A DNA stretch of 64,000 nucleotides from Paracidovorax wautersii (GTDB lineage Bacteria > Pseudomonadota > Gammaproteobacteria > Burkholderiales > Burkholderiaceae_C). The position numbers and the translations under genes are program-made. The DNA is taken from the NCBI GenBank assembly GCA_009912175.1, contig WNDQ01000017.1, positions 2,402-66,401 of the forward strand, in the 5' to 3' direction. The notes beneath the pieces were generated by a model that was not told the origin of the DNA, did no database searches, and worked only from the letters and a program-made list of their open reading frames with translations. Positions 1,015 to 37,308 of the stretch are shown one piece after another; within the stretch, counting starts at the first letter, position 1, and each line of letters opens with the position of its first letter.

Positions 1015-2352
1015 ATGAATGCCCCCGCTGCTTCCCTGCGTGCGCAGCCGCTGCGCCTGGCCACGGCCTCGGCCTCGTTCGAGGCGGACTTCAAGGCCAG
1101 GCTGCACTGGTCGGCCGACACCGACGCGGCCATCGAGCAGCGTGTGGCCGACATCCTGGCCGACGTGCAGCAGCGCGGCGACGCGGCCGTACTGGAGTAC
1201 ACACGCCGCTTCGACGGCCTGGACGTGGCCAGCATGGGCGCGCTCGAACTGACGGCCGCTGAACTGGCCGCCGCCTTCGACAGCCTGCCCGCCGAACAGC
1301 GCGAGGCCCTGCAGGCGGCCGCGCGGCGCGTACGCAGCTACCACGAGGCCCAGAAGAAGGCCTGCGGCGAAAGCTGGAGCTACCGCGACGAGGACGGCAC
1401 GCTGCTGGGCCAGAAGGTGACGCCGTTGGACCGCGTCGGCATCTATGTGCCGGGCGGCAAGGCCGCCTATCCCTCGTCCGTGCTGATGAACGCGATTCCG
1501 GCGCACGTGGCGGGTGTGGGCGAGATCGTCATGGTCGTGCCCACGCCGCGCGGCGAGAAGAACCCGCTCGTGCTGGCTGCCGCCTACGTGGCCGGTGTCA
1601 CGCGCGCCTTCACCATCGGCGGTGCGCAGGCCGTGGCGGCGCTGGCCTACGGCACCGCGACGGTTCCCAACGTCGACAAGATCACCGGCCCTGGCAACGC
1701 CTATGTGGCGGCGGCCAAGCGCCGTGTCTTCGGCACCGTGGGCATCGACATGATCGCCGGGCCCAGCGAGATCCTGGTGCTGGCCGACGGCAGCACGCCG
1801 GCCGACTGGGTGGCGATGGACCTGTTCTCGCAGGCCGAGCATGACGAACTCGCGCAGAGCATTCTGCTGAGCCCGGACGCGGATTACCTGACGCAGGTCC
1901 AGGCCGCGATCGACCGGCTGCTGCCCAGCCTGCCGCGCGCCGAGATCATCGCCAAAAGCCTCAACGGGCGTGGCGCGCTGATCCACACGCGCAGCATGGA
2001 AGAAGCCTGCGAGATCGCCAACCGCATCGCCCCGGAGCACCTGGAAATCTCCAGCCGCGACCCGCAGCGCTGGGAGCCGCTGCTGCGCCACGCCGGCGCC
2101 ATCTTCATGGGCGCCTACACCAGCGAAAGCCTGGGCGACTACTGCGCCGGTCCCAACCACGTGCTGCCGACCTCGGGCACGGCGCGTTTTTCGAGCCCGC
2201 TGGGCGTCTACGATTTCCAGAAACGCAGCAGCCTGATCGAAGTCAGCGAAGCCGGCGCCCAGACGCTGGGCCGCATCGCCGCCGTGCTGGCCTACGGCGA
2301 AGGGCTGCAGGCGCATGCGCGCGCGGCCGAACTGCGCCTGAAGTCGAACTGA
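1015..2352 (+). CDS. hisD: histidinol dehydrogenase
   Basis: 445 aa; [42 protein letters not shown] motifs. Confidence 0.95.
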
Positions 2353-2565
2353 CGCCGGACAACTGACACCGTTCTGGCGCGGCTGCCCACGGAGCGGCCC
2401 GCCCGTCCGGGTGGAACTTCTGTTTTACCCGAGGCGGTGATTTGCCCTGGGACCGCTGCACGGTGTGGGCTGTGCGCTACGAAATGCGAACACCACCGAC
2501 GCCAGTCGTCAGGCCGTGCGGGCCCGCGCCGCAGGGGAAAAGAGGAATCGGCGACAATACCGGGC

Positions 2566-3162
2566 ATGAACGCCCCGCGCATCGCAGAAGTCTCCCGCAC
2601 CACGGCGGAAACCCAGATCACCGTCAAAGTCAACCTCGACGGCACCGGCCGCGCCACCCTGGCCAGCGGCATCGGCTTTTTCGACCACATGCTCGACCAG
2701 ATCGCCCGCCATGGGCTGATCGACCTCGACGTTCATTGCCAGGGCGACCTGCACATCGACGGCCACCACACGGTGGAAGACGTCGGCATCACGCTGGGCC
2801 AGGCCGTGGCCCAGGCGGTGGGCGACAAGAAGGGCATCCGCCGCTACGGCCATGCCTACGTGCCGCTCGACGAGGCGCTCAGCCGTGTCGTCATCGATTT
2901 CTCGGGCCGTCCCGGCCTGCAGTTCCACGTGCCCTTCACCAGCGGCATGGTTGGCGCCTTCGACACGCAACTGGCCTACGAATTCTTCCAGGGCTTTGCC
3001 AACCACGCGGGCGTGACGCTGCACATCGACAACCTGCGCGGCATCAACGCCCACCACCAGGCCGAGACGGTGTTCAAGGCCTTTGCGCGCGCGCTGCGCG
3101 CCGCACTCGAATTCGATCCGCGCAACGCGGGCGTGATTCCGTCGACCAAGGGCTCGCTGTGA
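2566..3162 (+). CDS. hisB: imidazoleglycerol-phosphate dehydratase
   Basis: Internal ATG at 2566 chosen ([18 protein letters not shown]...). [16 protein letters not shown] and [11 protein letters not shown] motifs. The upstream part of ORF 2437 is Arg/Pro-rich junk. Confidence 0.9.
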
Positions 3163-3216
3163 GCCTGGCCTGTTTCCCCTGGTGATCGCGCTTCAGATAT
3201 TTCCGGCTCAGCAGCT

Positions 3217-3873
3217 ATGAATTCAGGTAACAAAACCGTGGCCGTCGTGGACTACGGCATGGGCAATCTGCGCTCGGTGTCGCAGGCCGTCAAGGTCGCC
3301 GCCCAGGGCAGCGGCTACGACGTGATGGTCAGCAGCGACGCCGACGTGGTGCGCCGCGCCGAGCGCATCGTGCTGCCCGGCCAGGGCGCCATGCGCGACT
3401 GCATGCGCGAGCTGCGCGACTCGGGCCTGCTGCCCGTGGTGCTGGAGGCCGCGGCCTCCAAACCCCTGTTCGGCGTGTGCGTGGGCATGCAGATGCTGCT
3501 CGACCACAGTGCCGAGGGCAACACGCCCAGCCTGGGCCTGATTCCGGGCGAGGTCGTCAAGTTCGACCTGGCCGGCCGCTCGCAGGCCGACGGCACGCGC
3601 ATGAAGGTGCCGCAGATGGGCTGGAACCGCGTGCGCCAGTCGCGCCCGCACCCGGTCTGGGGCGAGGTGGCCGACAACAGCTGGTTCTATTTCGTGCACA
3701 GCTACTACGCGCGCCCGCAGTCGGATGCGCACAGTGTGGGCGAGGCCGATTACGGCGGGCGCTTTACCGCAGCGGTCGCTCGCGATAATATTTTTGCCAC
3801 GCAGTTCCACCCGGAGAAAAGCGCCGACCAGGGGCTGGCGCTTTACCGCAATTTCCTTGGATGGCGTCCCTGA
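3217..3873 (+). CDS. hisH: imidazole glycerol phosphate synthase, glutamine amidotransferase subunit
   Basis: 218 aa; [21 protein letters not shown] (nucleophile Cys), [10 protein letters not shown]. Confidence 0.9.
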
Positions 3874-30177: not shown

Positions 30178-31088
30178 CGGATTCTCTCTTTTTCGCTGTC
30201 GTGGTCCAGGGCAGCATCGGCGGCATCGCAAATCTGCGCCACTGTCCGCGTCTCGTCGCCGAGCTTGAAGGCGCTGTCTTCGCGTATTGGTCCCTTCAGG
30301 CAGCATGCAGATTGGAGCGTGCCAGCGGCCCAACGCAGGGCCTCGCGCAGTTCTGCGATGGATTCGATGATGGGCTCTGCGCCTCCATCATCCGGGTCCA
30401 GACCCATCGCCTCGTTGATGGCGCCCAATGCCTCGCACGCGGCATGGAACATGCGACGGTATTGCTCGCGGCTTGTCGTGTCGCCGTCGTCGGCCTGGGC
30501 GCGGGGCGGGTGGCCTGCGTAGAGCGTGTGGTCGCCGTCCGGCAGATCGCGTGCGCCGTCCAGCCACTCAACAACCGTCCGTTGGTTGCCATCAGCGTAG
30601 ATGCGCATCACAGGCTCTGCCTCCTGCCCTTGGGCGGCGATCAGTCGGGCAACCTCGGCAACCGGATCACCTTCTTCCTCCATGCCGAGTGCGCGGAGGA
30701 TGAGGCAGTAGTTGCTCGCGTCTGTCTTGCTCACGGAAACCATATCTTGTCTTTGGGCCGCCAGAACTCCATCGATCGCAAGGTGGAACGTGTCGTGGCA
30801 CTGCTGCGCGAACGCTTTCGGGACCATCCGAGCTTCGGCGCCATCAGGGCAGCAATCACGATACTTTGCATCGACGGTGCCGATGCTGCCGCAGCCAGGG
30901 CAGTAGCGCACCAGCGGCCCCCCTCCATCCCCCTTGGGGGCAGCAGCAACTTTTTTCAGGATCTGCAGGGCTTCGTACATGAGCAGCGTGGCCGTGTTTT
31001 CTTGGCCATAGCGGCCGATGTATTGCGTCAGATTTTCAGCCATGCTGGCGGCTTCGCGCGGCAGGGTGGATTTAGGGGTGGTGGTCAT
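30174..31088 (-). CDS. hypothetical phage protein (304 aa) with a Cys cluster CPGCG...CCPDG
   Basis: ATGA overlaps at both ends with neighbouring genes. Acidic, non-repetitive sequence. No family recognised. Confidence 0.55.
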   Translation of the reverse strand: MTTTPKSTLPREAASMAENLTQYIGRYGQENTATLLMYEALQILKKVAAAPKGDGGGPLVRYCPGCGSIGTVDAKYRDCCPDGAEARMVPKAFAQQCHDTFHLAIDGVLAAQRQDMVSVSKTDASNYCLILRALGMEEEGDPVAEVARLIAAQGQEAEPVMRIYADGNQRTVVEWLDGARDLPDGDHTLYAGHPPRAQADDGDTTSREQYRRMFHAACEALGAINEAMGLDPDDGGAEPIIESIAELREALRWAAGTLQSACCLKGPIREDSAFKLGDETRTVAQICDAADAALDHDSEKERIR

Positions 31089-31582
31089 GCTGCTTTCCTT
31101 TCGATGTGCAGGCCCTGGGCGCGGAGCTGGGCTTCGGCTTTTTTGCTGATGCGGGAGAGTTCGCCGCGGGAGACGTGCTGGAGTTGTCCGCGGAAGAGGT
31201 CGCGCAGGAACAGGAGGGCCTGGGCTTCAATGGCGGTGACGGCGGGGGCGTGCCACTGGCCGCCATCGACGGCGCGGGCGAAGATGGCGCCGAGGGTTTG
31301 GCCGGCCTGGTCGAGGGCTGGCAGTTGGCCGCAGACGATGCCGCTGCGCTCGATGGCCAGGGCGATGAGGTGGGCGCCGCGGGTGATGGACCAATCGTCA
31401 TGCGTGCCCTGGCCGGCGATGAGGGCGTTGATGCTGGCGGTGGTGGGGCGGATGATGGCGGCGAGTTCGTCGGGCTGGAGTTTGGCGGCGCGGTTGGCGG
31501 CGATGGCGAACGGCGTAGGGCCGACCTGGGTCTTGGTCTGGCGGGCCTGGACGGCGGCGCGGTGGATGTAGCGGGTTTTCAT
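31085..31582 (-). CDS. hypothetical phage protein (165 aa)
   Basis: High third-position GC; start/stop coupled with neighbours. No family recognised. Confidence 0.55.
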   Translation of the reverse strand: MKTRYIHRAAVQARQTKTQVGPTPFAIAANRAAKLQPDELAAIIRPTTASINALIAGQGTHDDWSITRGAHLIALAIERSGIVCGQLPALDQAGQTLGAIFARAVDGGQWHAPAVTAIEAQALLFLRDLFRGQLQHVSRGELSRISKKAEAQLRAQGLHIERKAA

Positions 31583-32889
31583 GCGGCGGCCCTTTCAATG
31601 CGCGCTGGCACGGCGAAGAAGTTGGACAAGTGCTGCTGCAGCCTGGAGTGGTACGACGCCATTTCCGACCTGGCGGAGCTGGTGAGCGCGGGATTCGTCC
31701 ACCAGATAGGCCATCCCATCAGCCAGCAGGCGAACGCCGGGTTCAACCGCCGGGGCAAGGTCCGGCCGGTTGGCGACAATGGCCGCCCATCGAGGGTCGA
31801 GCGGACCGGGTGCGAAAAGTGGTGTTCCACGTAGTTCGGGAGCTGTTCGCCGCCCGTGTGGTTGCGGTTGGCCTGGCTGTTCTGGCTGTTCGGGGTACGG
31901 TAGTCGCGGCTGGCCGGCGTGGGCCATTCGCCCGCCATCGAGTGCAGGCTGTGACCCCTCTTCCCGCTGTCGATGCAGCCCTTGCCGCCGGCTTGTTCGC
32001 TGTCCGACATCGTTGGCGTCGGCCACTGCGCCGCTGCGCTCGGTAGCATCAGGTCGCCGCGACTCCCGGCTTGATTCGGGCCGCCCTTGGTGCCGTCCGT
32101 TGCACGAGGTGTGGGCCATGTCCTGGCTTGTTCGGCAAAGGTCGGATTGCCCTGGCCCCGACCGTAGTTGCCCTGTCGCTTGGCATCCGCTGCTGCAGGT
32201 GTTTGCCATTGCTTTGCTGCCAGTGCAATCGTCGGCCTGGATGCCGCGCCCGGCGATGGGCTGCGGTTGATCCGCTCGCCGCCCGTGTCCGGTGTCGGCC
32301 ATGCGCCAGGCGATGCAAAACCAGCGCTCTCGCCCATGGCTGGCTCCCACGTCGGACGCGGATAGATGGAGCCATTCCGCGTTCCACCCGCGGTCGGCCA
32401 GTTCTCCCACGACGCGGGCGGCGGCTCTTTCTTCGAGTGGCCCTTGGGCTTCGTCCATAGCGGAGGCGGTGGCAGTAGCGATGGCTGAGACGTTCTCCAG
32501 AAAGAGGCCTGACGCACCGCAAGCGTCGGCGAGGTCGAGGATGTCGAAGAAGAGGCCGGAGCGTTTGCCGTCAAGCCCAGCACGGCGGCCGGCGATGGAG
32601 ATGTCCTGGCACGGGAAGCCTGCAATGATCCAATCCACGCATCCGCGCCACGCTGTGCCGTCGAAGGTGAGCAGGTCAGACCAGATAGGCGCTGGAGCAA
32701 GGGCTCCCGCTTCCATGAGCGCGACAAGTTGCGCGGCTGCAGGGGCTTCCCGCTCCACGTAGCAAATGGTGCGGAGGTCGTGGCCGAGAAATCGGAGTGC
32801 AGCCCGGGCGCCGAGGCCGAGCATGCCGACGCCGGCGCAGAGTTCGATGGCGGTGAAGGTTGCGCCCTGGGGAGGTAGAGCCATGTCAT
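31579..32889 (-). other. 436-codon ORF in the +1 frame fully overlapping the methyltransferase gene (frame B); second product, frameshift partner or artefact
   Basis: MTWLYLP...SWENWPTAGGTRNG...5x W(P/Q)TP...RRLNPAFACWLMGWPIWWT... ATGA overlaps with both neighbouring genes. Higher third-position GC than frame A over the distal two thirds (hand tally). Confidence 0.35.
31595..32884 (-). CDS. DNA (cytosine-5)-methyltransferase (frame A)
   Basis: Motif I ELCAGVGMLGLG, IV GFPCQDIS, VI ENV, VIII GRERWF, X QLRQVGNGVVP in canonical order. See the findings for the fully overlapping second frame. Confidence 0.75.
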   Translation of the reverse strand: MALPPQGATFTAIELCAGVGMLGLGARAALRFLGHDLRTICYVEREAPAAAQLVALMEAGALAPAPIWSDLLTFDGTAWRGCVDWIIAGFPCQDISIAGRRAGLDGKRSGLFFDILDLADACGASGLFLENVSAIATATASAMDEAQGPLEERAAARVVGELADRGWNAEWLHLSASDVGASHGRERWFCIAWRMADTGHGRRADQPQPIAGRGIQADDCTGSKAMANTCSSGCQATGQLRSGPGQSDLCRTSQDMAHTSCNGRHQGRPESSRESRRPDATERSGAVADANDVGQRTSRRQGLHRQREEGSQPALDGGRMAHAGQPRLPYPEQPEQPGQPQPHGRRTAPELRGTPLFAPGPLDPRWAAIVANRPDLAPAVEPGVRLLADGMAYLVDESRAHQLRQVGNGVVPLQAAAALVQLLRRASAH

Positions 32890-33530
32890 GCCTGTTCTTT
32901 CTCCAGCATGCGCAGGGCTTCGACGCAGCGGGCGGCGCCGAAGTATTTCTGGCCGTGGCCGGCGCTGACGGTGGTGGCTTTGCCGAAGCGGTCGAGGTTC
33001 ATGGCCTGCTGGCGCTGGTGGTGATGGGCGATGCCGGCGCAGAGTTCGATGGCCTGGCGGAGGATGTCGGCGCGGCTGACTTTTGTCATGGCGGCGGGGG
33101 CAGGGCTGTTGCAGCGGCCGGGGCAAGGGTCGGCAGACGGTTGGCTGCCGGCTTGGGCCAGGGCGGTGGCTTTGCCGGGCTGGCGCCCGCCGAAGTACAT
33201 GACGGCGGGGAGGGCGCCTTCGGCGTTTTCGGCGAGTGTGACGAGCATGCCGAGGGCTTTGGCGATGTGGTGTTCGAGCTTGGCGCCGCGGCTGGCGGTC
33301 CAGCCGGGGAGCATGTGGATGCGATCGCAGGTGATGAGCTGGTTGATGTCCTGGCGCATGCAGGTTTCCCAGGCGGTGGTTGGGTCGGCGTTGATTTCGG
33401 CGGGATTGATGACGGTGTGGCCGAGGCTGCGGAGCTGGGCGGCTTCGGCGTGGAAGGCGGGGAAGTTGAGGTCGGGCAGGCCGGTCATGGGGCCGGCGAT
33501 GTAGATGCGCTGGGGGGTGTTGCGGGTCAT
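32886..33530 (-). CDS. DUF4406 (nucleoside 2-deoxyribosyltransferase-like) domain protein with ~110-aa C-terminal extension
   Basis: ATG 33530: MTRNTPQRIYIAGPMTGLPDLNFPAFHAEAAQLRSLGHTVINPAE... Confidence 0.65.
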   Translation of the reverse strand: MTRNTPQRIYIAGPMTGLPDLNFPAFHAEAAQLRSLGHTVINPAEINADPTTAWETCMRQDINQLITCDRIHMLPGWTASRGAKLEHHIAKALGMLVTLAENAEGALPAVMYFGGRQPGKATALAQAGSQPSADPCPGRCNSPAPAAMTKVSRADILRQAIELCAGIAHHHQRQQAMNLDRFGKATTVSAGHGQKYFGAARCVEALRMLEKEQA

Positions 33531-33535
33531 GGTGG

Positions 33536-33841
33536 TCAGTCCTTTGGGTGGAGGGCGGGGTTGATGACGTGGCGGTGCGACTCGAATTGGCGCGGCAGCA
33601 CGCGGCGGCCGGCGATGAGGCTGGGGCAGGCGAGGTTGTCGAATGCGCCGGGCCGGTTGTTGGTGGGCAGCAGTTCGGGGCAGGTGTAGGCGTCGCCGGG
33701 GATGTGGCTGCTGGGGCCGCTGGGGATGGCGCGGCTGTAGCTGCACAGTGGGCGTGGATGGGCGGCCCACATGGCGCGGGCCTGGCGGTCTTGCTCGATG
33801 ACGGCGTCGAGCATGTAGCGGTTGCGGTGGTCTGCGGTCAT
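33536..33841 (-). CDS. hypothetical phage protein (101 aa)
   Basis: Fits tightly in the operon, between the 33530 start and the 33857 stop. No family recognised. Confidence 0.4.
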   Translation of the reverse strand: MTADHRNRYMLDAVIEQDRQARAMWAAHPRPLCSYSRAIPSGPSSHIPGDAYTCPELLPTNNRPGAFDNLACPSLIAGRRVLPRQFESHRHVINPALHPKD

Positions 33842-33856
33842 GGTGTTGGCGGGTGG

Positions 33857-34162
33857 TCAGATGAGGCCGGTGGCGATGGCGGGCAACAGGAATGCGATGC
33901 AGGCGATGCCGACGAGGGTGGCGACGCGCATGCCGAGGTCGGCGCGTGTTTCGCGCCGGGCGTGGGCGGCGAGGATTGCGGCAAGGTGGTGGCGGGTGAG
34001 GCGGGCCGGGTGGCCGTGGTGGCCGACGATGTGCAGGGCGGGCGTCGCCGGCCTGGCCTGCCGGCTGCGGCGCGCAGGGCGAAGGCGGTTCCAGATGTGC
34101 AGGGCGCCGAGGGCGAGGCCGGCGATGTTGGCGAGGCAGTAGGCGATGAGGATGGTTTTCAT
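33857..34162 (-). CDS. small membrane protein (101 aa, hydrophobic N- and C-termini)
   Basis: MKTILIAYCLANIAGLALGAL... and ...LVGIACIAFLLPAIATGLI. ATGA overlap with the upstream gene. Confidence 0.45.
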   Translation of the reverse strand: MKTILIAYCLANIAGLALGALHIWNRLRPARRSRQARPATPALHIVGHHGHPARLTRHHLAAILAAHARRETRADLGMRVATLVGIACIAFLLPAIATGLI

Positions 34163-34407
34163 GCGGCCTCCCGAATCAAGAAAGTGGCGAAGGCGGGTTG
34201 GTCTGCGGCAGTGGCCGACGGCGTGAACAGGTCTGGCTGCGCGCGCGTGGTGGGCGTGGTAGCCACGCGCCGGGCTTTGCGTTGGGCTGTCTGGATGCCG
34301 CGGGCGCGGGCGAAGGTGTCGCGCACGTCGGTGCCGGCGGCGGGGGTGTAGGGGTGCGGGATGCGCACCTTGTGGGCCAGGGGTGGGTTGAAGGGCTTGT
34401 GCTGCAT
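34159..34407 (-). CDS. hypothetical phage protein (82 aa)
   Basis: Operon position and ATGA coupling only. Confidence 0.4.
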   Translation of the reverse strand: MQHKPFNPPLAHKVRIPHPYTPAAGTDVRDTFARARGIQTAQRKARRVATTPTTRAQPDLFTPSATAADQPAFATFLIREAA

Positions 34408-34456
34408 GGTGGTGGTGCCTCCGGTGGTGATGTGTGGCGTGGTCGGTTGGTGTGGA

Positions 34457-36568
34457 TCAGGGCTTGCCGGCCAGCAGCGCGCGCAGGGCGGGCGGCAGGG
34501 CCTTGAGGCGGGCGGAGATGGCGGCGACGTCGTCGCGGGCGGCGGGCTGGGCCGGCGTGGCGGTGGTGGCCGGGCATGCAGCGGCCGTGGCTTGGGCGCG
34601 GGCCGGCATGCGGAAGGTGGTGCGGATGCCGTCGATGACGTGGATTTCTGGCTCGGGGGCGGGCCGGGGGGCTTTGGCGATGGCGGCGCGGCGGGATTCG
34701 GCCCGGATTTCGGCGATTTCGGCCGTGGTGAAGTCGGGCTGGGTGGGTTTGTCGCCCTGCAGGAGCTGGCGCAGCGTCTCGCCGCGCAGGCGGGCCGTAC
34801 AGTTATTGAAACCAGTCCAAGGCCGCCCTAGCGCTTCGCGCTCGGCCGGGTCCTGCACGGCTTCGCCGTTGCAGGAGGGCAGGGATGCCCAGGCTTGCCG
34901 GCGGCTGATGAGCCAGTAGCCGATACGGGTTTCCACGCCGACGATCTTCTTGCGGTCGCCGACTTCGCCGTAGCTGTTGCGGCAATTGGGGGTGACGCGC
35001 ACGGCGGGGCGCAGCATCCATTCGCGGCGCTTGCGGCACATACCGCCCTGGGCGGCCACGTAGCCGCGCCAGGATGCCTGGATGCCGTATTCCTTCTGGC
35101 AGGCGTGCCAGGCCTTGACGGCGGCGGCGTCGCCGAAGTCGAGTCGCATTTGCGCGTGCTCGATCTGGTCTTTGGTGACGCGGCGCAGCTCGCGCCAGAC
35201 GGTGACGCTGGGCTGGCCGATGGGCTGGAACTGGCGGATGCCCCAGGTTGCAGCCCAGGCGTCGACGCGCTGCCAGCCTTTGTATTCGCGCGTGTCCATG
35301 ACGTGTTCGAAGCCGTCGATGGTGTCGGTGTGCACGCCCACGCCGGCATCGCCGCCATCTTCGGCGCCGATGTTCTTGGCGACGTATTTGGCGACGTAGC
35401 CGGCGGCACCGCCGCGCGTCATGGCGATGAATTTGGTGCGGTTGGCCAGCGCGCCGGGTTCGTCGCCGGCGTCTTTCAGCCAGTAGTCGCGGATGATGGT
35501 TTCGGCCTGCTGGGCGGCCTCGGGCGTTTCGAACCACAGCAGCATGTGCCAGTGCGGGCAGCCGTCGTGGTGTGGCTCGGCGACTCGGAAGCCGTACATG
35601 CGCAGCTTCTTGCGGCCGAGTTTTGCGCGGGCGCGTGCCCAGGTGTCGCACAGCCAGGCCTGCGCCTCGCGCGGGGTGGCGTCTTCGTATTTGCGGTTGG
35701 GCACGGGCTTGGCGCGCGGGCTTTTGCCGCCGGAGAGCACGGCGTGGAAGCGGCTGGGGCAGGTGAGTGTGAGGAACAGGCCGATGTGGCCGGCGGCGTC
35801 GGCAAATTCCTCGCAGCCACGGATGCGGGTCATCAGCTCGCCGCGGCGGATGTCGCGGTTGCTGACGCTGCGCGCGGCCAGTTCGGCCAGGGTGAAGACT
35901 TGGCCGGCTTCATTGCGCATGAGGCTGCGCTTGAGCATTTCGGTGTTGCGCTTGTTCTGCTCGACGCGGCGGCGGCAGGCCTCGTCGCTGGCGTAGCCGC
36001 CGTTCTTGCGGTGCACGACGGCGAGCTTGATGGCGGCGTGTTCGGAGATGCGCGCGGCTTTCTTGCGCAGCGCGCGGCGCCACCAGCGTTCGGTGACGGC
36101 GCGGGCGATGACGCCTTCGGCGAGGTCGGCAATGGGGGGCTCGACACCCAGGCGCTCGCAGTAGTCGAGCACGGTGTCCAGGCGCTCTTGCTTGCTCATT
36201 GGCAGGCTGTGGCCGCTGAGCATGTCGTCGAGGGTGTTGGCGCAGGCGCGTGCGCGGTCGCACAGGGTGCCGTCGCCCACGGTCCATTGCATGACGTCCT
36301 TGTGCGCGTGCTCGAAGGCGCGCATGGCGTCGACGCGGGCGAGGTTCCAGCTGTCCCACTCGGCGCCGATGGCCTTGGCCACCGGGCGGCGGGGCATGAT
36401 GATGTCGAGCGCAGGCACCCACTGCGTGGGCAGTTCGCGGCGCAGGCGTGCGTCCATCATCCGTGCCGTCTGCGCGACTTGCTGGTGCAAGGGCAAGTTG
36501 GTGCGGATGCTCGACCAGAACACCGGATCGGGCCGGGCGTGGTGCTTGCGGGCGCGGGTGGTATGCAT
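34457..36568 (-). CDS. gpA: P2 gpA-type replication initiation endonuclease
   Basis: ATG 36568 chosen. Conserved block LTLTCPSRFH...YGFRVAEPHHDGCPHWHMLLWF...YVAKYVAKNIG typical of the phage replication protein A family. Confidence 0.8.
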   Translation of the reverse strand: MHTTRARKHHARPDPVFWSSIRTNLPLHQQVAQTARMMDARLRRELPTQWVPALDIIMPRRPVAKAIGAEWDSWNLARVDAMRAFEHAHKDVMQWTVGDGTLCDRARACANTLDDMLSGHSLPMSKQERLDTVLDYCERLGVEPPIADLAEGVIARAVTERWWRRALRKKAARISEHAAIKLAVVHRKNGGYASDEACRRRVEQNKRNTEMLKRSLMRNEAGQVFTLAELAARSVSNRDIRRGELMTRIRGCEEFADAAGHIGLFLTLTCPSRFHAVLSGGKSPRAKPVPNRKYEDATPREAQAWLCDTWARARAKLGRKKLRMYGFRVAEPHHDGCPHWHMLLWFETPEAAQQAETIIRDYWLKDAGDEPGALANRTKFIAMTRGGAAGYVAKYVAKNIGAEDGGDAGVGVHTDTIDGFEHVMDTREYKGWQRVDAWAATWGIRQFQPIGQPSVTVWRELRRVTKDQIEHAQMRLDFGDAAAVKAWHACQKEYGIQASWRGYVAAQGGMCRKRREWMLRPAVRVTPNCRNSYGEVGDRKKIVGVETRIGYWLISRRQAWASLPSCNGEAVQDPAEREALGRPWTGFNNCTARLRGETLRQLLQGDKPTQPDFTTAEIAEIRAESRRAAIAKAPRPAPEPEIHVIDGIRTTFRMPARAQATAAACPATTATPAQPAARDDVAAISARLKALPPALRALLAGKP

Positions 36569-36582
36569 GACGGTCGGCCGGG

Positions 36583-37308
36583 CTAGACGGTCAGCGCGAA
36601 GAGCGGATGGAGGGAGCGCTTGAGTTCGCTGACGCAGGCGCTGATGGCCATGCGCTCGCCTGGGCCGATTTCTCGCCAATCGCGCTTGAGCAGCTCGTCG
36701 TGGTCGCCGTCGACGCCACTGAACACAAGCACCAGCAGACGTACGCGCACAGGGAGCGATTTCCACTCGGCCGCTGCGGCCGTGATGTTTCGGCCCTCGA
36801 AGGTGTCGGCAACGGCTTGCCGGCGGATTTCGGCGAGGCGGGCGCGGTAGTGGCGTTCATAGCTGGGGTTCCTGATGCCGTCGGGTTGGGTTTCTGTTCG
36901 GGTTGGCCGGGCGGGCTGATCGGTGAGCGGTGGCGGATCGGTCTGCGGCTCTGCGGGCGGTGGCTGGGGCAGGGCGGCGGTGTTGGCCGCGCCGTCGTAA
37001 TGGTCCTTGGCGCCGGGCTCGTCTTCGCCCTGGCTCCCCCAGGTGAGGGGGGGTGTCGCCTGGGGATCGGCGGCGATGAGGTGATAGGCGGGCGTGTCGC
37101 CGTGCGCCGGCATGGTGCCGATATAGATGCCGCCCTGGCCGCGCCAGGGCTGGCCTGCGGCAGGCGGCACGGCGCTCGCCATGGCAGCAGATAGCTCGGC
37201 TCCACCCAAGGCCGACAGAACGCTGCCGGGGGGATCGATGGCGGCGACACCGCCGGGCAGGATATGGATGGCGACGTGGTCGATGTGACTGATGCTGATG
37301 GTGCTCAT
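36583..37308 (-). CDS. hypothetical protein whose N-terminal half resembles the leader part of DUF1566 phage proteins
   Basis: GQPWRGQGGIYIG...YHLIAAD...WGSQGEDEPGA...DGAANTAAL parallels the next gene's GQPWTAQGGILGA...DGKANTAAL. The C-terminal half is unrelated. Confidence 0.55.
   Translation of the reverse strand: MSTISISHIDHVAIHILPGGVAAIDPPGSVLSALGGAELSAAMASAVPPAAGQPWRGQGGIYIGTMPAHGDTPAYHLIAADPQATPPLTWGSQGEDEPGAKDHYDGAANTAALPQPPPAEPQTDPPPLTDQPARPTRTETQPDGIRNPSYERHYRARLAEIRRQAVADTFEGRNITAAAAEWKSLPVRVRLLVLVFSGVDGDHDELLKRDWREIGPGERMAISACVSELKRSLHPLFALTV

Follow-up and report, generated by a model that had tools for sequence, protein, structure and literature searches.

What does a methyltransferase gene encode if its conserved motifs are divided between two reading frames of the same strand? 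The question is raised by a 1.3-kb minus-strand prophage gene of Paracidovorax wautersii, located in the 64,000-nucleotide stretch of DNA analyzed here (the window), in which two overlapping frames, offset by one base, each constitute a complete ORF (Table 1). An earlier note on this DNA had described frame A as an ORF of 429 aa bearing the motifs of a cytosine-5 (C5) methyltransferase and frame B as an ORF of 436 aa without stops. Both descriptions are accurate, and the strings quoted from the two frames are present, namely ELCAGVGMLGLG for motif I in frame A and SWENWPTAGGTRNG, five W(P/Q)TP units and RRLNPAFACWLMGWPIWWT in frame B. The ATGA overlaps said to join frame B to its neighbors were likewise recovered: the TGA of the upstream DUF4406 gene (32886-32888) falls inside the B ATG (32889-32887), 5 nt upstream of the A ATG, and the B TGA overlaps the ATG of the next gene (31580-31582). 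Frame B is open beyond its own ATG, upstream as far as TTG 33126.

The earlier hand tallies of third-position G+C (GC3) were reproduced when recomputed by region. In the N part, A3 and B3 are equal at 71.4%; in the middle part they are 63.7% and 75.6%, and in the last 76 codons 63.2% and 85.5%, respectively. The neighboring genes have a GC3 of 85-86%. A3 GC is depressed to 48-64% wherever frame B is conserved, and to merely 48% at motif X, against 85% in these neighbors. Databases annotate either A or B, never the two together; frame A is named “DNA cytosine methyltransferase,” and frame B is called “hypothetical protein,” “cytosine-specific methyltransferase” or even “chromosome partitioning protein.”

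Table 1. Features of the two-frame methyltransferase locus (positions in the window).
Feature	Position	Strand	Description
Frame A ORF, 429 aa	31595-32884	-	ATG 32884 to TGA 31595-31597; alpha-like: C5-methyltransferase large domain, predicted disordered linker, motif X
Frame B ORF, 436 aa, +1 relative to A	31579-32889	-	ATG 32889 to TGA 31579-31581; beta-like: leader, WxTP repeats, motif IX, tail helix
Initiation region common to both frames	32881-32904	-	GGAG 32901-32904; B ATG 32887-32889; A ATG 32882-32884
Frame A catalytic motifs I, IV, VI, VIII	32318-32845	-	I 32810-32845; IV 32597-32620; VI 32489-32497; VIII 32318-32335
Frame A element LFAPGPLDPRW	31787-31819	-	opens the conserved A C-terminal module (alignment conservation)
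Frame A motif X, QLRQVGNGVVP	31649-31681	-	overlaps frame B tail; G407, N408, G409, V410 and V411 invariant (alignments A1, A3)
Frame B leader, ~190 aa	32320-32889	-	over the catalytic domain; stop-free; hardly conserved past the frame A shadow
Frame B WxTP array, five ~30-aa units	31855-32301	-	putative target-recognition modules; same DNA as the frame A linker (sequence)
Frame B motif IX, RRLNPAFACWLMGWPIWWT	31696-31752	-	its frame A shadow is VRLLADGMAYLVDES
Frame B C-terminal helix, SEMASYHSRLQQHLSNFF	31615-31668	-	predicted helix 407-425, pLDDT ~82 in best block; most confident B part
ATGA overlap	31579-31582	-	frame B stop / start of downstream 165-aa gene (sequence)

Enzyme elements and start codons of the two frames

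Frame A contains, in order and in one chain, ELCAGVG (motif I, within ELCAGVGMLGLG), GFPCQDIS (IV), ENV (VI) and GRERWF (VIII). A Pfam search gave the PF00145 match that had been expected (E 3.7e-23), confined to aa 10-195 and covering profile positions 1-163 of 324. The variable region and motifs IX and X do not share a chain; frame A encodes motif X, and frame B the repeats and motif IX. An AF2 model of frame A, computed from an alignment without the cyanophage row, assigns pLDDT 83-95 to aa 1-197 (low in the catalytic loop, 92-109), 30-37 to aa 198-357 and ~93 to the C-terminal helix. The predicted disordered segment, aa 198-357, occupies the place expected of the small domain, and frame A thus has neither motif IX nor a folded small domain. 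The best Foldseek matches of the model are M.HaeIII and M.HhaI, over ~185-190 columns. Toward the C-terminus, the LFAPGPLDPRW element retains F357, G360, P361 and W366 as invariant residues in a 30-sequence alignment (A1) and F357, A358, P361 and W366 in a 34-sequence alignment (A3); it is also kept in cyanophage, rhizobial and planctomycete versions.

Frame B matched no Pfam or NCBIfam family, and its profile found no match among PDB sequences at E ≤ 1, leaving the WxTP units with no matching solved structure. It is nevertheless a large family: there are 779 full-length homologs, and the family profile collects 21,966 cluster representatives at E ≤ 1e-3 and 8,003 at E ≤ 1e-10. The WxTP units begin at aa 197, 228, 258, 289 and 322 and number from 1 to 6 per gene across relatives; judging by their position and by canonical relatives, we infer that they serve as target-recognition modules. 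Motif IX is conserved in all 43 aligned B homologs, with R381, L382, P384, F386, W389, L390, M391, P394 and W397 invariant, and AF2 predicts a helix at 384-390. A spacing of 41 nt from motif IX to the GNG of motif X holds for the majority of 84 distinct junctions. By itself, frame B is modeled as mostly disordered (mean pLDDT 46.8), too low a value for a fold search with the model.

The frame B leader (pLDDT ~40) was considered as a conserved domain and rejected, given that its identity in distant pairs is 0.27-0.30 against a shadow null of 0.23-0.24 (z just 1.5-2.2). Since the leader is hardly conserved past the frame A shadow, the 190-aa leader and the 160-aa linker of frame A are dead weight that needs explanation.

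The two frames share a start region whose geometry is conserved. The consensus derived from ~40 distinct loci reads (A/G)TGA-ATG-TGG-CTC-TAC-RTT-CC, and the A start lies at -4, +2 or +5 relative to the B start. One ribosome-binding site precedes the two start codons, which lie 2-5 nt from each other, and a Shine-Dalgarno-like sequence lies 5-12 nt upstream in the examples inspected among these loci. Many loci have an in-frame TGA immediately 5′ of the B ATG. The B N-terminus, MWLY(I/V)P, is kept in beta- and alphaproteobacteria through to a cyanophage.

Both reading frames are maintained by selection

Substitution periodicity shows that amino-acid selection changes frame in the course of the gene, in the order A, B, both, A. 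In the N region the most variable codon phase is A3 (0.3-0.54 vs 0.1-0.25), and in the repeat region it is B3 (0.53-0.6 vs ~0.4). The profile is flat at motif IX, where the three codon phases are about equally constrained, and the variability peak returns to A3 in the last 20 codons. A single-frame periodicity along the whole gene, which the earlier note had named as the result that would speak against it, was not observed. The frame A region between motifs VIII and X appears to be junk, the periodicity there tracking frame B and the AF2 model giving disorder. Beyond the B leader and the A linker, no part of the gene looks like unselected sequence.

Stop codons were counted after a permutation in which synonymous codons of one frame were shuffled, the amino-acid sequence and codon usage being retained. 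At the present locus, permuting the A codons gave an expectation of 4.0 stops in frame B (none present, P = 0.002), and permuting the B codons an expectation of 8.2 in frame A (none present, P < 0.002), while the third frame contains 6 stops, matching expectation. The same holds for more than 100 related loci with a GC content of 54-68%, from proteobacteria, Planctomycetota, Verrucomicrobiota, Acidobacteriota and one cyanophage: A and B are stop-free throughout, and the third frame has 6-21 stops. Per locus, 2-12 stops are expected. Summed over 33 loci, the expectation was 74.5 B stops in the N region and 110 A stops in the linker, and the count was 0 in each case.

Of 46 IMG/VR loci found via B (GC 55-68%), frame A is intact in ~38, with 6-16 stops in the third frame. 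Searching by frame A yielded 51 genome loci from outside the actinobacteria, with A identity down to 31%; their catalytic regions contain 8 B stops where 105.7 are expected, and 43 of the 51 loci have none. Eleven actinobacterial relatives, which provide a control, have 21 B stops against 29.7 expected. In ~8 of the 46 IMG/VR loci and a few genome loci, the length of the middle cassette disrupts the usual frame pairing. Phase variation by homopolymer indels was considered for such loci and rejected: by BLAST, the cassettes of L040, L047, L080 and L114 differ in length from those of their closest relatives by a non-multiple of three, not by one tract base.

Canonical relatives indicate that the frame B segments are parts of the enzyme. 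In Mycobacterium phage Seagreen gp68 and in Timonella, a single frame holds motifs I-VIII together with LLPTP repeats and motifs IX and X; the Timonella sp. A28 locus (L121) is a single-frame gene whose +1 frame is closed by 12 stops. Seagreen and relatives from Streptomyces and Nonomuraea are intermediate, with some or all repeats in a nested +1 ORF and motifs IX and X in frame A. The phage family phrog_1008 matches frame B at aa 255-408 (E 1.4e-23) and continues colinearly into frame A at aa 398-426. These three comparisons agree with the identification, in the earlier note, of the frame B strings as target-recognition and C-terminal parts of phage/ICE methyltransferase-like proteins; they are variable-region and motif-IX parts of phage C5-methyltransferases.

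Two divergent relatives carry an I-CreI-like LAGLIDADG homing endonuclease domain in frame B, and frame A remains open across it, with 0 stops against 5.0 expected (P = 0.001) in one and 0 against 3.8 (P = 0.008) in the other. A search of Rfam (E ≤ 0.1) found no group I intron in the endonuclease-bearing relatives or in Gordonia phage Ailee, and an HNH-like-looking frame B insert in locus L136 matched no Pfam family.

A probable split enzyme and the alternatives

Both ORFs are open throughout the family far past what codon usage predicts, and each contains amino-acid-selected segments that are absent from the other. Genuine dual coding, one of three options raised in the earlier note, is therefore favored, and the suspicion that this is not a plain one-frame gene is upheld. 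To judge by their motifs, A and B together would hold each canonical C5-methyltransferase element exactly once. We consider it probable that the locus encodes a split methyltransferase, in which A and B are both translated as separate chains and assemble as M.EcoHK31I does.

Under this proposal, the locus is a P2-like prophage's gene for a DNA cytosine-5 methyltransferase, and we infer that both of its ~1.3-kb ORFs are translated in this host. That both chains would be made and needed for methylation has indirect support from the maintenance of the ORFs, the conserved B start and the homing endonuclease domain in frame B. Ribosomes would be recruited at one ribosome-binding site, or through coupling to the DUF4406 gene, and would initiate either at the B ATG (32889) or 5 nt downstream at the A ATG (32884). 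The alpha-like A chain would supply the AdoMet-binding and catalytic large domain with motifs I-VIII, followed by a disordered linker of ~160 aa whose sole requirement is to lack a stop codon, and would close with the FAPGP..W element followed by the motif X helix, which would pack back onto the large domain. The beta-like B chain would begin with its ~190-aa leader, likewise needing just to stay open, and continue through the variable, target-recognition region of five WxTP units to motif IX and the C-terminal helix. By analogy with the alpha and beta chains of M.EcoHK31I, the two chains may then associate physically as a split enzyme. Points that weigh against the proposal are the largely disordered prediction for B by itself, the burden of leader and linker, the minority of loci with disrupted frame pairing, and the location of the M.EcoHK31I target-recognition domain on its alpha chain.

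The order of the selected segments could also be produced by recoding, in which a +1 shift immediately downstream of motif VIII would take ribosomes from A to B and a -1 shift between motifs IX and X would return them to A, yielding one canonical chain with full-length A and B as by-products. The frame order A, B, A does reproduce the canonical order of motifs I-VIII, variable region with motif IX, and motif X, and canonical relatives hold all modules in one chain, the repeats being able to work in cis as a shift product would restore. In most loci the first WxTP lies 16-19 nt past motif VIII, so that a junction of canonical appearance would result from a +1 shift there. To this extent the frameshift with return to frame A that the earlier note envisaged fits the data. 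Left unexplained are the conserved B start codon and the stop-free condition of segments that would go unused, B in the catalytic region and A in the repeat region; a frameshift gene should have its zero frame closing after the shift and its new frame closed before it, whereas both are open in most loci. Nor was a signal found at the sequence level. At the +1 junction (VIII to WxTP), 104 loci contained no conserved sequence or homopolymer, junction sequences vary between loci, and the T4 tract at the present junction is not conserved; among 84 distinct IX-to-X junctions there was no XXXYYYZ slippery heptamer in any register, and a homopolymer run in just one. Moreover, the conserved A element FAPGP..W..LAPA sits between the repeats and motif IX, and a fully canonical chain would thus need four shifts. 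We regard recoding as quite improbable.

It is unlikely, in our estimation, that A and B are two independent proteins, A being a self-sufficient methyltransferase or an inactive remnant and B being translated for another role such as DNA binding, anti-restriction or regulation. Maintenance of both ORFs would be compatible with such a division, as would the continuation of the B ORF into ParB in phi1026b-like phages, the tolerance of B for homing-endonuclease insertions, and phrog_363 (short phage C5-methyltransferases, 327 positions), which aligns to the N and C parts of A with the middle absent. However, what is conserved in B has its homologs in canonical C5-methyltransferases, as their variable region and motif IX, A is without motif IX or a folded small domain, and the exactly complementary motif content of the two fits a split enzyme. 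Far less credible is the reading in which only one frame matters and high GC, with first-frame constraint, has produced the second ORF as a by-product, or in which the locus is a pseudogene or assembly error with compensating indels. Long spurious ORFs do occur in high-GC genomes, a minority of loci have frame-breaking indels, and some N-region B motifs are mere shadows of A motifs (“TLPRQGTTLNG” is seen in Timonella despite the 12 B stops there). Yet the stops predicted for each locus are absent, the predictions for the third frame and for the actinobacterial control are borne out, both frames are open even at 54-56% GC (L046, L070), and in the middle region the periodicity reveals selection acting on B. 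The layout is repeated in more than 100 independent loci of several phyla, drawn from the genomes of isolates and phages and from metagenomes; this recurrence refutes the indel error or pseudogenization that had been the third option of the earlier note.

The broader form of the split-enzyme proposal is that the gene is ancient, occurs across phyla and is dual-coding on one strand over its full length (~1.2-1.5 kb), with the two structural domains of one enzyme in two frames, made as separate chains from adjacent starts; we give this about an even chance. If it is true, the pair would rank with the longest and most widely distributed gene overlaps known from bacteria and phages, annotation would be systematically missing such genes, and the second frame would have been colonized by homing endonucleases. 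Exchange of the repeat cassette, or its growth from 1 to 6 units, could change or multiply target specificity while the catalytic chain is untouched. This would constitute a new class of split, modular m5C methyltransferases on mobile elements, which may be multispecific. The cultured phages phi1026b, Alfacinha1/3 and Synechococcus phage Yong-M2-251 offer test systems for dual initiation at adjacent starts.

Comparison with known systems

Long same-strand overlapping genes are rare in bacteria and phages, and claims of them are contested; the present case draws on over 100 independent loci, on the third frame as an internal control, on a clade serving as phylogenetic control and on a known biochemical precedent. 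Literature searches on dual-coding or overlapping methyltransferase genes in phages and on the phi1026b methyltransferase turned up no publication on the family.

The precedent is M.EcoHK31I, reportedly recognized as a heterodimer by Lee, Kam and Shaw in 1995. Its alpha chain carries motifs I-VIII and X together with the target-recognition domain, its beta chain, with motif IX, is encoded wholly in another frame inside the alpha gene, and activity needs both chains (PMC2836561, PMC3404938). The arrangement of the present gene, likened here by layout as described, is the same in that motif IX lies in frame B over the pre-X segment of frame A: frame A has motifs I-VIII and X without IX, and RRLNPAFACWLMGWPIWWT falls inside the A ORF on the putative second chain. 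It differs in that the WxTP repeats, and with them the putative target-recognition region, are in B rather than on the alpha-like chain. In addition, the beta chain of M.EcoHK31I is small and nested, whereas the second ORF here is equally long (436 vs 429 codons), starts 5 nt away, carries the whole variable/repeat region besides motif IX, and belongs to a layout conserved across phyla.

Another natural two-chain C5-methyltransferase is M.AquI of Synechococcus PCC 7002, in which alpha consists of motifs I-VIII and half the variable region, beta of the rest with motifs IX-X (PMC3404938). The fold therefore tolerates a split in the variable region, but in M.AquI the split is serial, without gene-length dual coding. 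The likeness to Seagreen gp68, the Timonella gene and phrog_1008 is one of homology, extending over motifs I-VIII, (L/W)xTP repeats, an “F.EW(L/M)MG.P.GW” motif IX and a “GNGV” motif X. The C5-methyltransferases of the Bacillus phages SPR, phi3T and rho11s are multispecific single chains in one frame, with tandem target-recognition domains. They resemble the present gene in being phage-borne and in having a variable number of ~30-50 aa tandem modules between motifs VIII and IX, a likeness of layout, not of sequence.

Overprinted viral gene pairs provide a further comparison, for example TYMV p69, which is overprinted on the replicase methyltransferase domain (PMC8227390). Such pairs likewise combine a long same-strand overlap with one product that is largely disordered where the other is folded. 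A gene overprinted de novo should have no homologs outside the overlap and a narrow range, and neither is true of frame B, whose functional parts are homologous to parts of the ancestral enzyme moved out of frame. If both chains are made, the overlap would have arisen by displacement of the enzyme's own domains into another frame, not by de novo overprinting.

Two overlapping frames in a prophage replication module

The methyltransferase gene belongs to a Paracidovorax wautersii MAG and lies in the replication module of a P2-like prophage, adjoining the GpA replication gene. Acidovorax phage Alfacinha3 has the same gene neighborhood, but with DUF4406 placed downstream. Frame A, the catalytic frame, carries the C5-methyltransferase motifs I, IV, VI, VIII and X where the earlier note had placed them and matched PF00145 in a Pfam search, as that note expected (E = 3.7e-23), with the match confined to the first 195 residues of the frame and to profile positions 1–163 of 324. 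The overlapping frame B (A+1) contains the five W(P/Q)TP units and RRLNPAFACWLMGWPIWWT that had been described for it, and matched no family in Pfam or NCBIfam; the MAG's own annotation labels it a hypothetical protein. Re-reading of the sequence showed both reported ATGA overlaps with neighboring genes to be real, the upstream gene is indeed DUF4406, and hand tallies of third-position GC proved correct to within a point or two. In frame A this value falls to 48–64% where B is conserved, versus 85% in neighboring genes.

Coordinates of features in the window and in related loci
Feature	Sequence	Position	Strand	Remark
Frame A ORF	window	ATG 32884 to stop 31595–31597	minus	429 aa
Frame B ORF	window	ATG 32889 to stop 31579–31581	minus	436 aa; open further upstream to 33126
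DUF4406 gene	window	32886–33770		module (32886–36766) order: GpA, small ORFs, DUF4406, then methyltransferase
GpA replication protein	window	34457–36766		same module as methyltransferase
Motif IX (frame B)	window	31696–31752
81-nt stretch	window	32035–32118
Region with 81-nt stretch	L004 (Seagreen)	1211–1597
LAGLIDADG domain	L138	~450–1030
LAGLIDADG domain	L139	1988–2480
Frame B continuing into ParB	L002 (phi1026b)	1483–3603
Variant with motif IX in frame A	L136	601–1986
Joined methyltransferase CDS	L003 (Ailee)	463–2337
Enclosed HNH endonuclease gene	L003 (Ailee)	905–1303

The A and B ATGs of the window are separated by 5 nt and lie downstream of GGAG at 32901–32904. Across ~40 distinct loci the 5′ end follows the consensus (A/G)TGA ATG TGG CTC TAC RTT CC, with an A-frame ATG, GTG or TTG at −4, +2 or +5 relative to the B start. 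Because an in-frame TGA often immediately precedes the B ATG, B begins exactly there. Shine-Dalgarno-like sequence stands 5–12 nt upstream of both starts in the examples inspected, and MWLY(I/V)P is conserved in betaproteobacteria, alphaproteobacteria and one cyanophage.

Long antisense and alternative-frame ORFs of up to 456 aa are numerous around the locus (for example, 30201–31571 and 32766–33689, both on the plus strand), as is expected at 67% GC. Since long spurious ORFs are common at this GC content, a long second ORF alone is no evidence, which made tests by permutation and by comparison necessary.

Openness of the frames and selection along the gene

Synonymous codons were shuffled within each gene, keeping protein sequence and codon usage, and stops arising in the other frames were counted. 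Over the whole gene in 34 loci, 2–7 stops were expected in B with A coding and 6–12 in A with B coding, and none was observed in either; stops in the third frame were as expected. By region (33 loci), B again had no stops over the catalytic domain with A coding (74.5 expected in total), nor did A over the repeats with B coding (110 expected). Among 51 non-actinobacterial loci ascertained through A, the catalytic region held 8 stops in B versus 105.7 expected, and none in 43 of them. Openness on this scale is not an effect of GC content. The null model is realistic, because in 11 actinobacterial relatives used as a control B is not kept open over this region (21 stops versus 29.7 expected). Synonymous sites between distant clades are near saturation (same-codon fraction 0.45–0.54 versus a null of ~0.4), so the missing stops cannot be put down to shared ancestry.

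Conservation of the two-frame layout is very broad. Both frames are open and bear both motif sets in Alfacinha3 and Burkholderia phage phi1026b (79–85% nucleotide identity in conserved parts), where one record annotates B and the other A. Synechococcus phage Yong-M2-251 has the two-frame layout, with the B N-terminus MWLYVP, despite only ~44% frame-A identity in the catalytic region. Of 46 IMG/VR loci ascertained through frame B (GC 55–68%), ~38 have no stop in frame A before its natural end, and the third frame has 6–16 stops. To remove ascertainment through B, species-representative genomes were searched with the frame-A alignment. The resulting non-actinobacterial loci, from beta- and alphaproteobacteria, Planctomycetota, Verrucomicrobiota and Acidobacteriota, among others (A identity down to 31%, GC 54–68%), have 0 or 1 stop in A+1 and 6–21 in the third frame, with WxTP units and motif IX in A+1 and GNGV in A. 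Deposited gene-caller products among the candidates scored comprise 1,223 from frame A and 779 from frame B, and searching with a frame-B profile at E ≤ 1e-3 retrieved 21,966 cluster representatives (8,003 at E ≤ 1e-10). The middle cassette of one to six repeat units is strongly divergent even between otherwise close relatives. In ~8 members of the 46-locus IMG/VR set, and in a small number of genome loci, its length breaks the usual frame pairing (L032, L033, L037, L039, L040, L043, L044, L047, L080 and L114); these loci might be copies in decay or products of misassembly.

Codon-aligned sequences of 29 non-redundant loci were used to calculate nucleotide diversity per codon phase. The most variable phase is A position 3 in the catalytic region (0.3–0.54 versus 0.1–0.25), B position 3 in the repeat region (0.53–0.6 versus ~0.4) and A position 3 again in the last 20 codons, which hold motif X (0.43 versus 0.22–0.24), while motif IX is flat at 0.3–0.43 in all phases. 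Selection therefore runs in the order A, B, both, A, which matches the canonical order of motifs I–VIII, variable region with IX, and X. Third-position periodicity in a single frame over the whole gene, which the earlier note had named as evidence against its claim of two frames, was not seen; periodicity changes frame in this alignment. Two stretches, the B leader that overlaps the catalytic domain and the A linker that overlaps the repeats, behave as if they need only stay open. In distant pairs, B leader identity is 27–30% versus 23–24% expected from A conservation alone (z 1.5–2.2). Some B leader "motifs" are shadows of A motifs VII–VIII; WPTAGGTRNG is one, and its string pattern also occurs in Timonella, where B is closed.

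Relatives with other layouts and insertions

In a PHROG profile search against phrog_1008 (DNA methyltransferase, 329 positions), frame B aa 255–408 aligned to positions 132–289 and frame A aa 398–426 to positions 293–321. This split of the alignment across the frames was the first sign that the two are complementary: in that family, one chain has the middle of B and the C-terminus of A in colinear order. In Mycobacterium phage Seagreen, the 512-aa gp68 is one ORF in which motifs I–VIII, five LLPTP units, FPEWMMGWPAGW as motif IX and ICGNGVCP as motif X all occur, and a Timonella genome (53% GC) has the same layout, with 12 stops in the +1 frame. Three grades occur within the family: a single-frame layout, that of Timonella and, for the most part, of Seagreen; a nested layout, that of actinobacterial genes (Streptomyces, Nonomuraea) whose IX and X remain in frame A while a nested +1 ORF holds the LPTP repeats alone; and the full two-frame arrangement of the window gene. 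Seagreen is intermediate: a +1 ORF of 128 aa supplies two additional units.

An 81-nt stretch encoding PTPRATDGTKGGPNQ.GS.GDLMLPSA is shared by actinophages and the betaproteobacterial prophage of the window at 82% DNA identity. The Seagreen copy is in a +1 ORF, and the annotated methyltransferase frame reads low-complexity sequence there. At one window site and homologous sites in L057, L093 and L100, motif IX (WLMGWP) one base out of frame reads (V/L)ADG(L/M)A, which we take to resemble the C-terminal RVADG...RVDRLR.LGNAVVP that many short phage C5-methyltransferases carry. Such C-termini may derive from motif IX through a frameshift.

Two divergent metagenomic relatives, L138 and L139, carry a 165–190-codon insertion directly after motif VI, which in frame B is an I-CreI-like LAGLIDADG homing-endonuclease domain (AYAAGLIDGEGS ... 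LEPFLKLKQEQAQ), continuous in frame with both the upstream B leader and the downstream B repeats. The L138 insert matched I-CreI in the PDB (E = 1.5e-7 for the single-chain form, ~1e-3 for monomers), and the two inserts matched phrog_5046 at E = 1e-17 and 1e-21. Frame A has no stops across either insertion (5.0 expected, P = 0.001; 3.8 expected, P = 0.008), compared with 11 and 9 stops in the third frame. An Rfam search of these relatives found no group I intron. A folded domain kept in B with A still open is what two translated frames would predict, and lends independent sequence support to translation of B.

In phi1026b-like phages (L002, Burkholderia phage phi1026b; P0060, P0063, P0066, P0070, P0072, P0116), the stop of frame B has been lost and the frame continues into the downstream ParB gene as a 643–741-aa ORF, which is why several phage records name the methyltransferase locus "chromosome partitioning protein". 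At L136 (the locus of P0227; also in P0196 and P0229), motif IX (KKRLNPGFAEWLMGWPVGWT) is in frame A, and ~100 codons inserted between IX and X form a separate ORF in frame B; its pattern CSKCGS..DRHHADY..CRACH looks HNH-like, and the insert had no Pfam match. In Gordonia phage Ailee, the homologous methyltransferase carries the annotation of a joined CDS in two pieces that enclose an HNH endonuclease gene, which suggests an intron-like mobile insertion; Rfam returned no intron there at E ≤ 0.1.

A candidate split methyltransferase

We consider it probable that the overlap encodes a split enzyme: A and B would be translated as two polypeptides, from adjacent starts to adjacent stops, that together make one methyltransferase. 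This model is favored because the features it requires, both ORFs open between adjacent starts and adjacent stops, are those observed. In M.HhaI, the large domain comprises motifs I–VIII together with X, and the small domain the variable region and IX. The proposed split follows this domain boundary, a further point in its favor. A function of B separate from the enzyme is unlikely. The frame A model (34 homologues) is a confident C5-methyltransferase large domain, with pLDDT 83–95 over residues 1–197 except the catalytic loop, 30–37 over residues 198–357 and ~93 in a C-terminal helix with motif X; M.HaeIII and M.HhaI rank top in Foldseek (~185–190 aligned columns). The frame B model (43 homologues; mean pLDDT 46.8) reaches moderate confidence only at motif IX and a C-terminal helix (407–425), and the B profile matched no solved structure. 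Such a model is evidence neither for nor against a fold that would form only with A or DNA.

Recoding, in which one chain is read across both frames by frameshifting, is consistent with the order of the selected segments, but it leaves the stop-free unused segments and the conserved B start unexplained. The 84 IX-to-X junctions contain no −1 slippery heptamer, and the +1 junction sequence is not conserved. Between the repeats and motif IX there is also a conserved frame-A element, FAPGP..W..LAPA, so that a fully canonical chain from the window gene would need four shifts; in variants such as P0196 and P0227, this element is followed directly by KKRLNP.F.EWLMGWP.GWT in frame A. We regard recoding as improbable, somewhat more so than a separate function for B, and an artefact, chance ORF or pseudogene, set beside the missing stops, as hardly credible.

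The case for the split enzyme is comparative and statistical throughout; production of A and B, their binding and a methylated sequence are its predictions. Public annotations of two-frame loci call one frame only, and our literature search returned nothing on a two-frame methyltransferase family. Two-chain enzymes are known in M.AquI (PMC3404938) and in M.EcoHK31I, whose alpha chain carries I–VIII, the TRD and X, and whose beta chain, with motif IX, is encoded wholly in another frame within the alpha gene, both chains being required (PMC2836561; PMC3404938). M.EcoHK31I is a direct biochemical precedent for the window gene: there too, one gene encodes motif IX in a different frame from the remaining motifs. 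A C5-methyltransferase subunit so encoded is thus a known principle, from one enzyme; a large cross-phylum family with whole-gene overlap, starts within 5 nt and a frame B predicted to hold the entire recognition region appears to be unrecognized.
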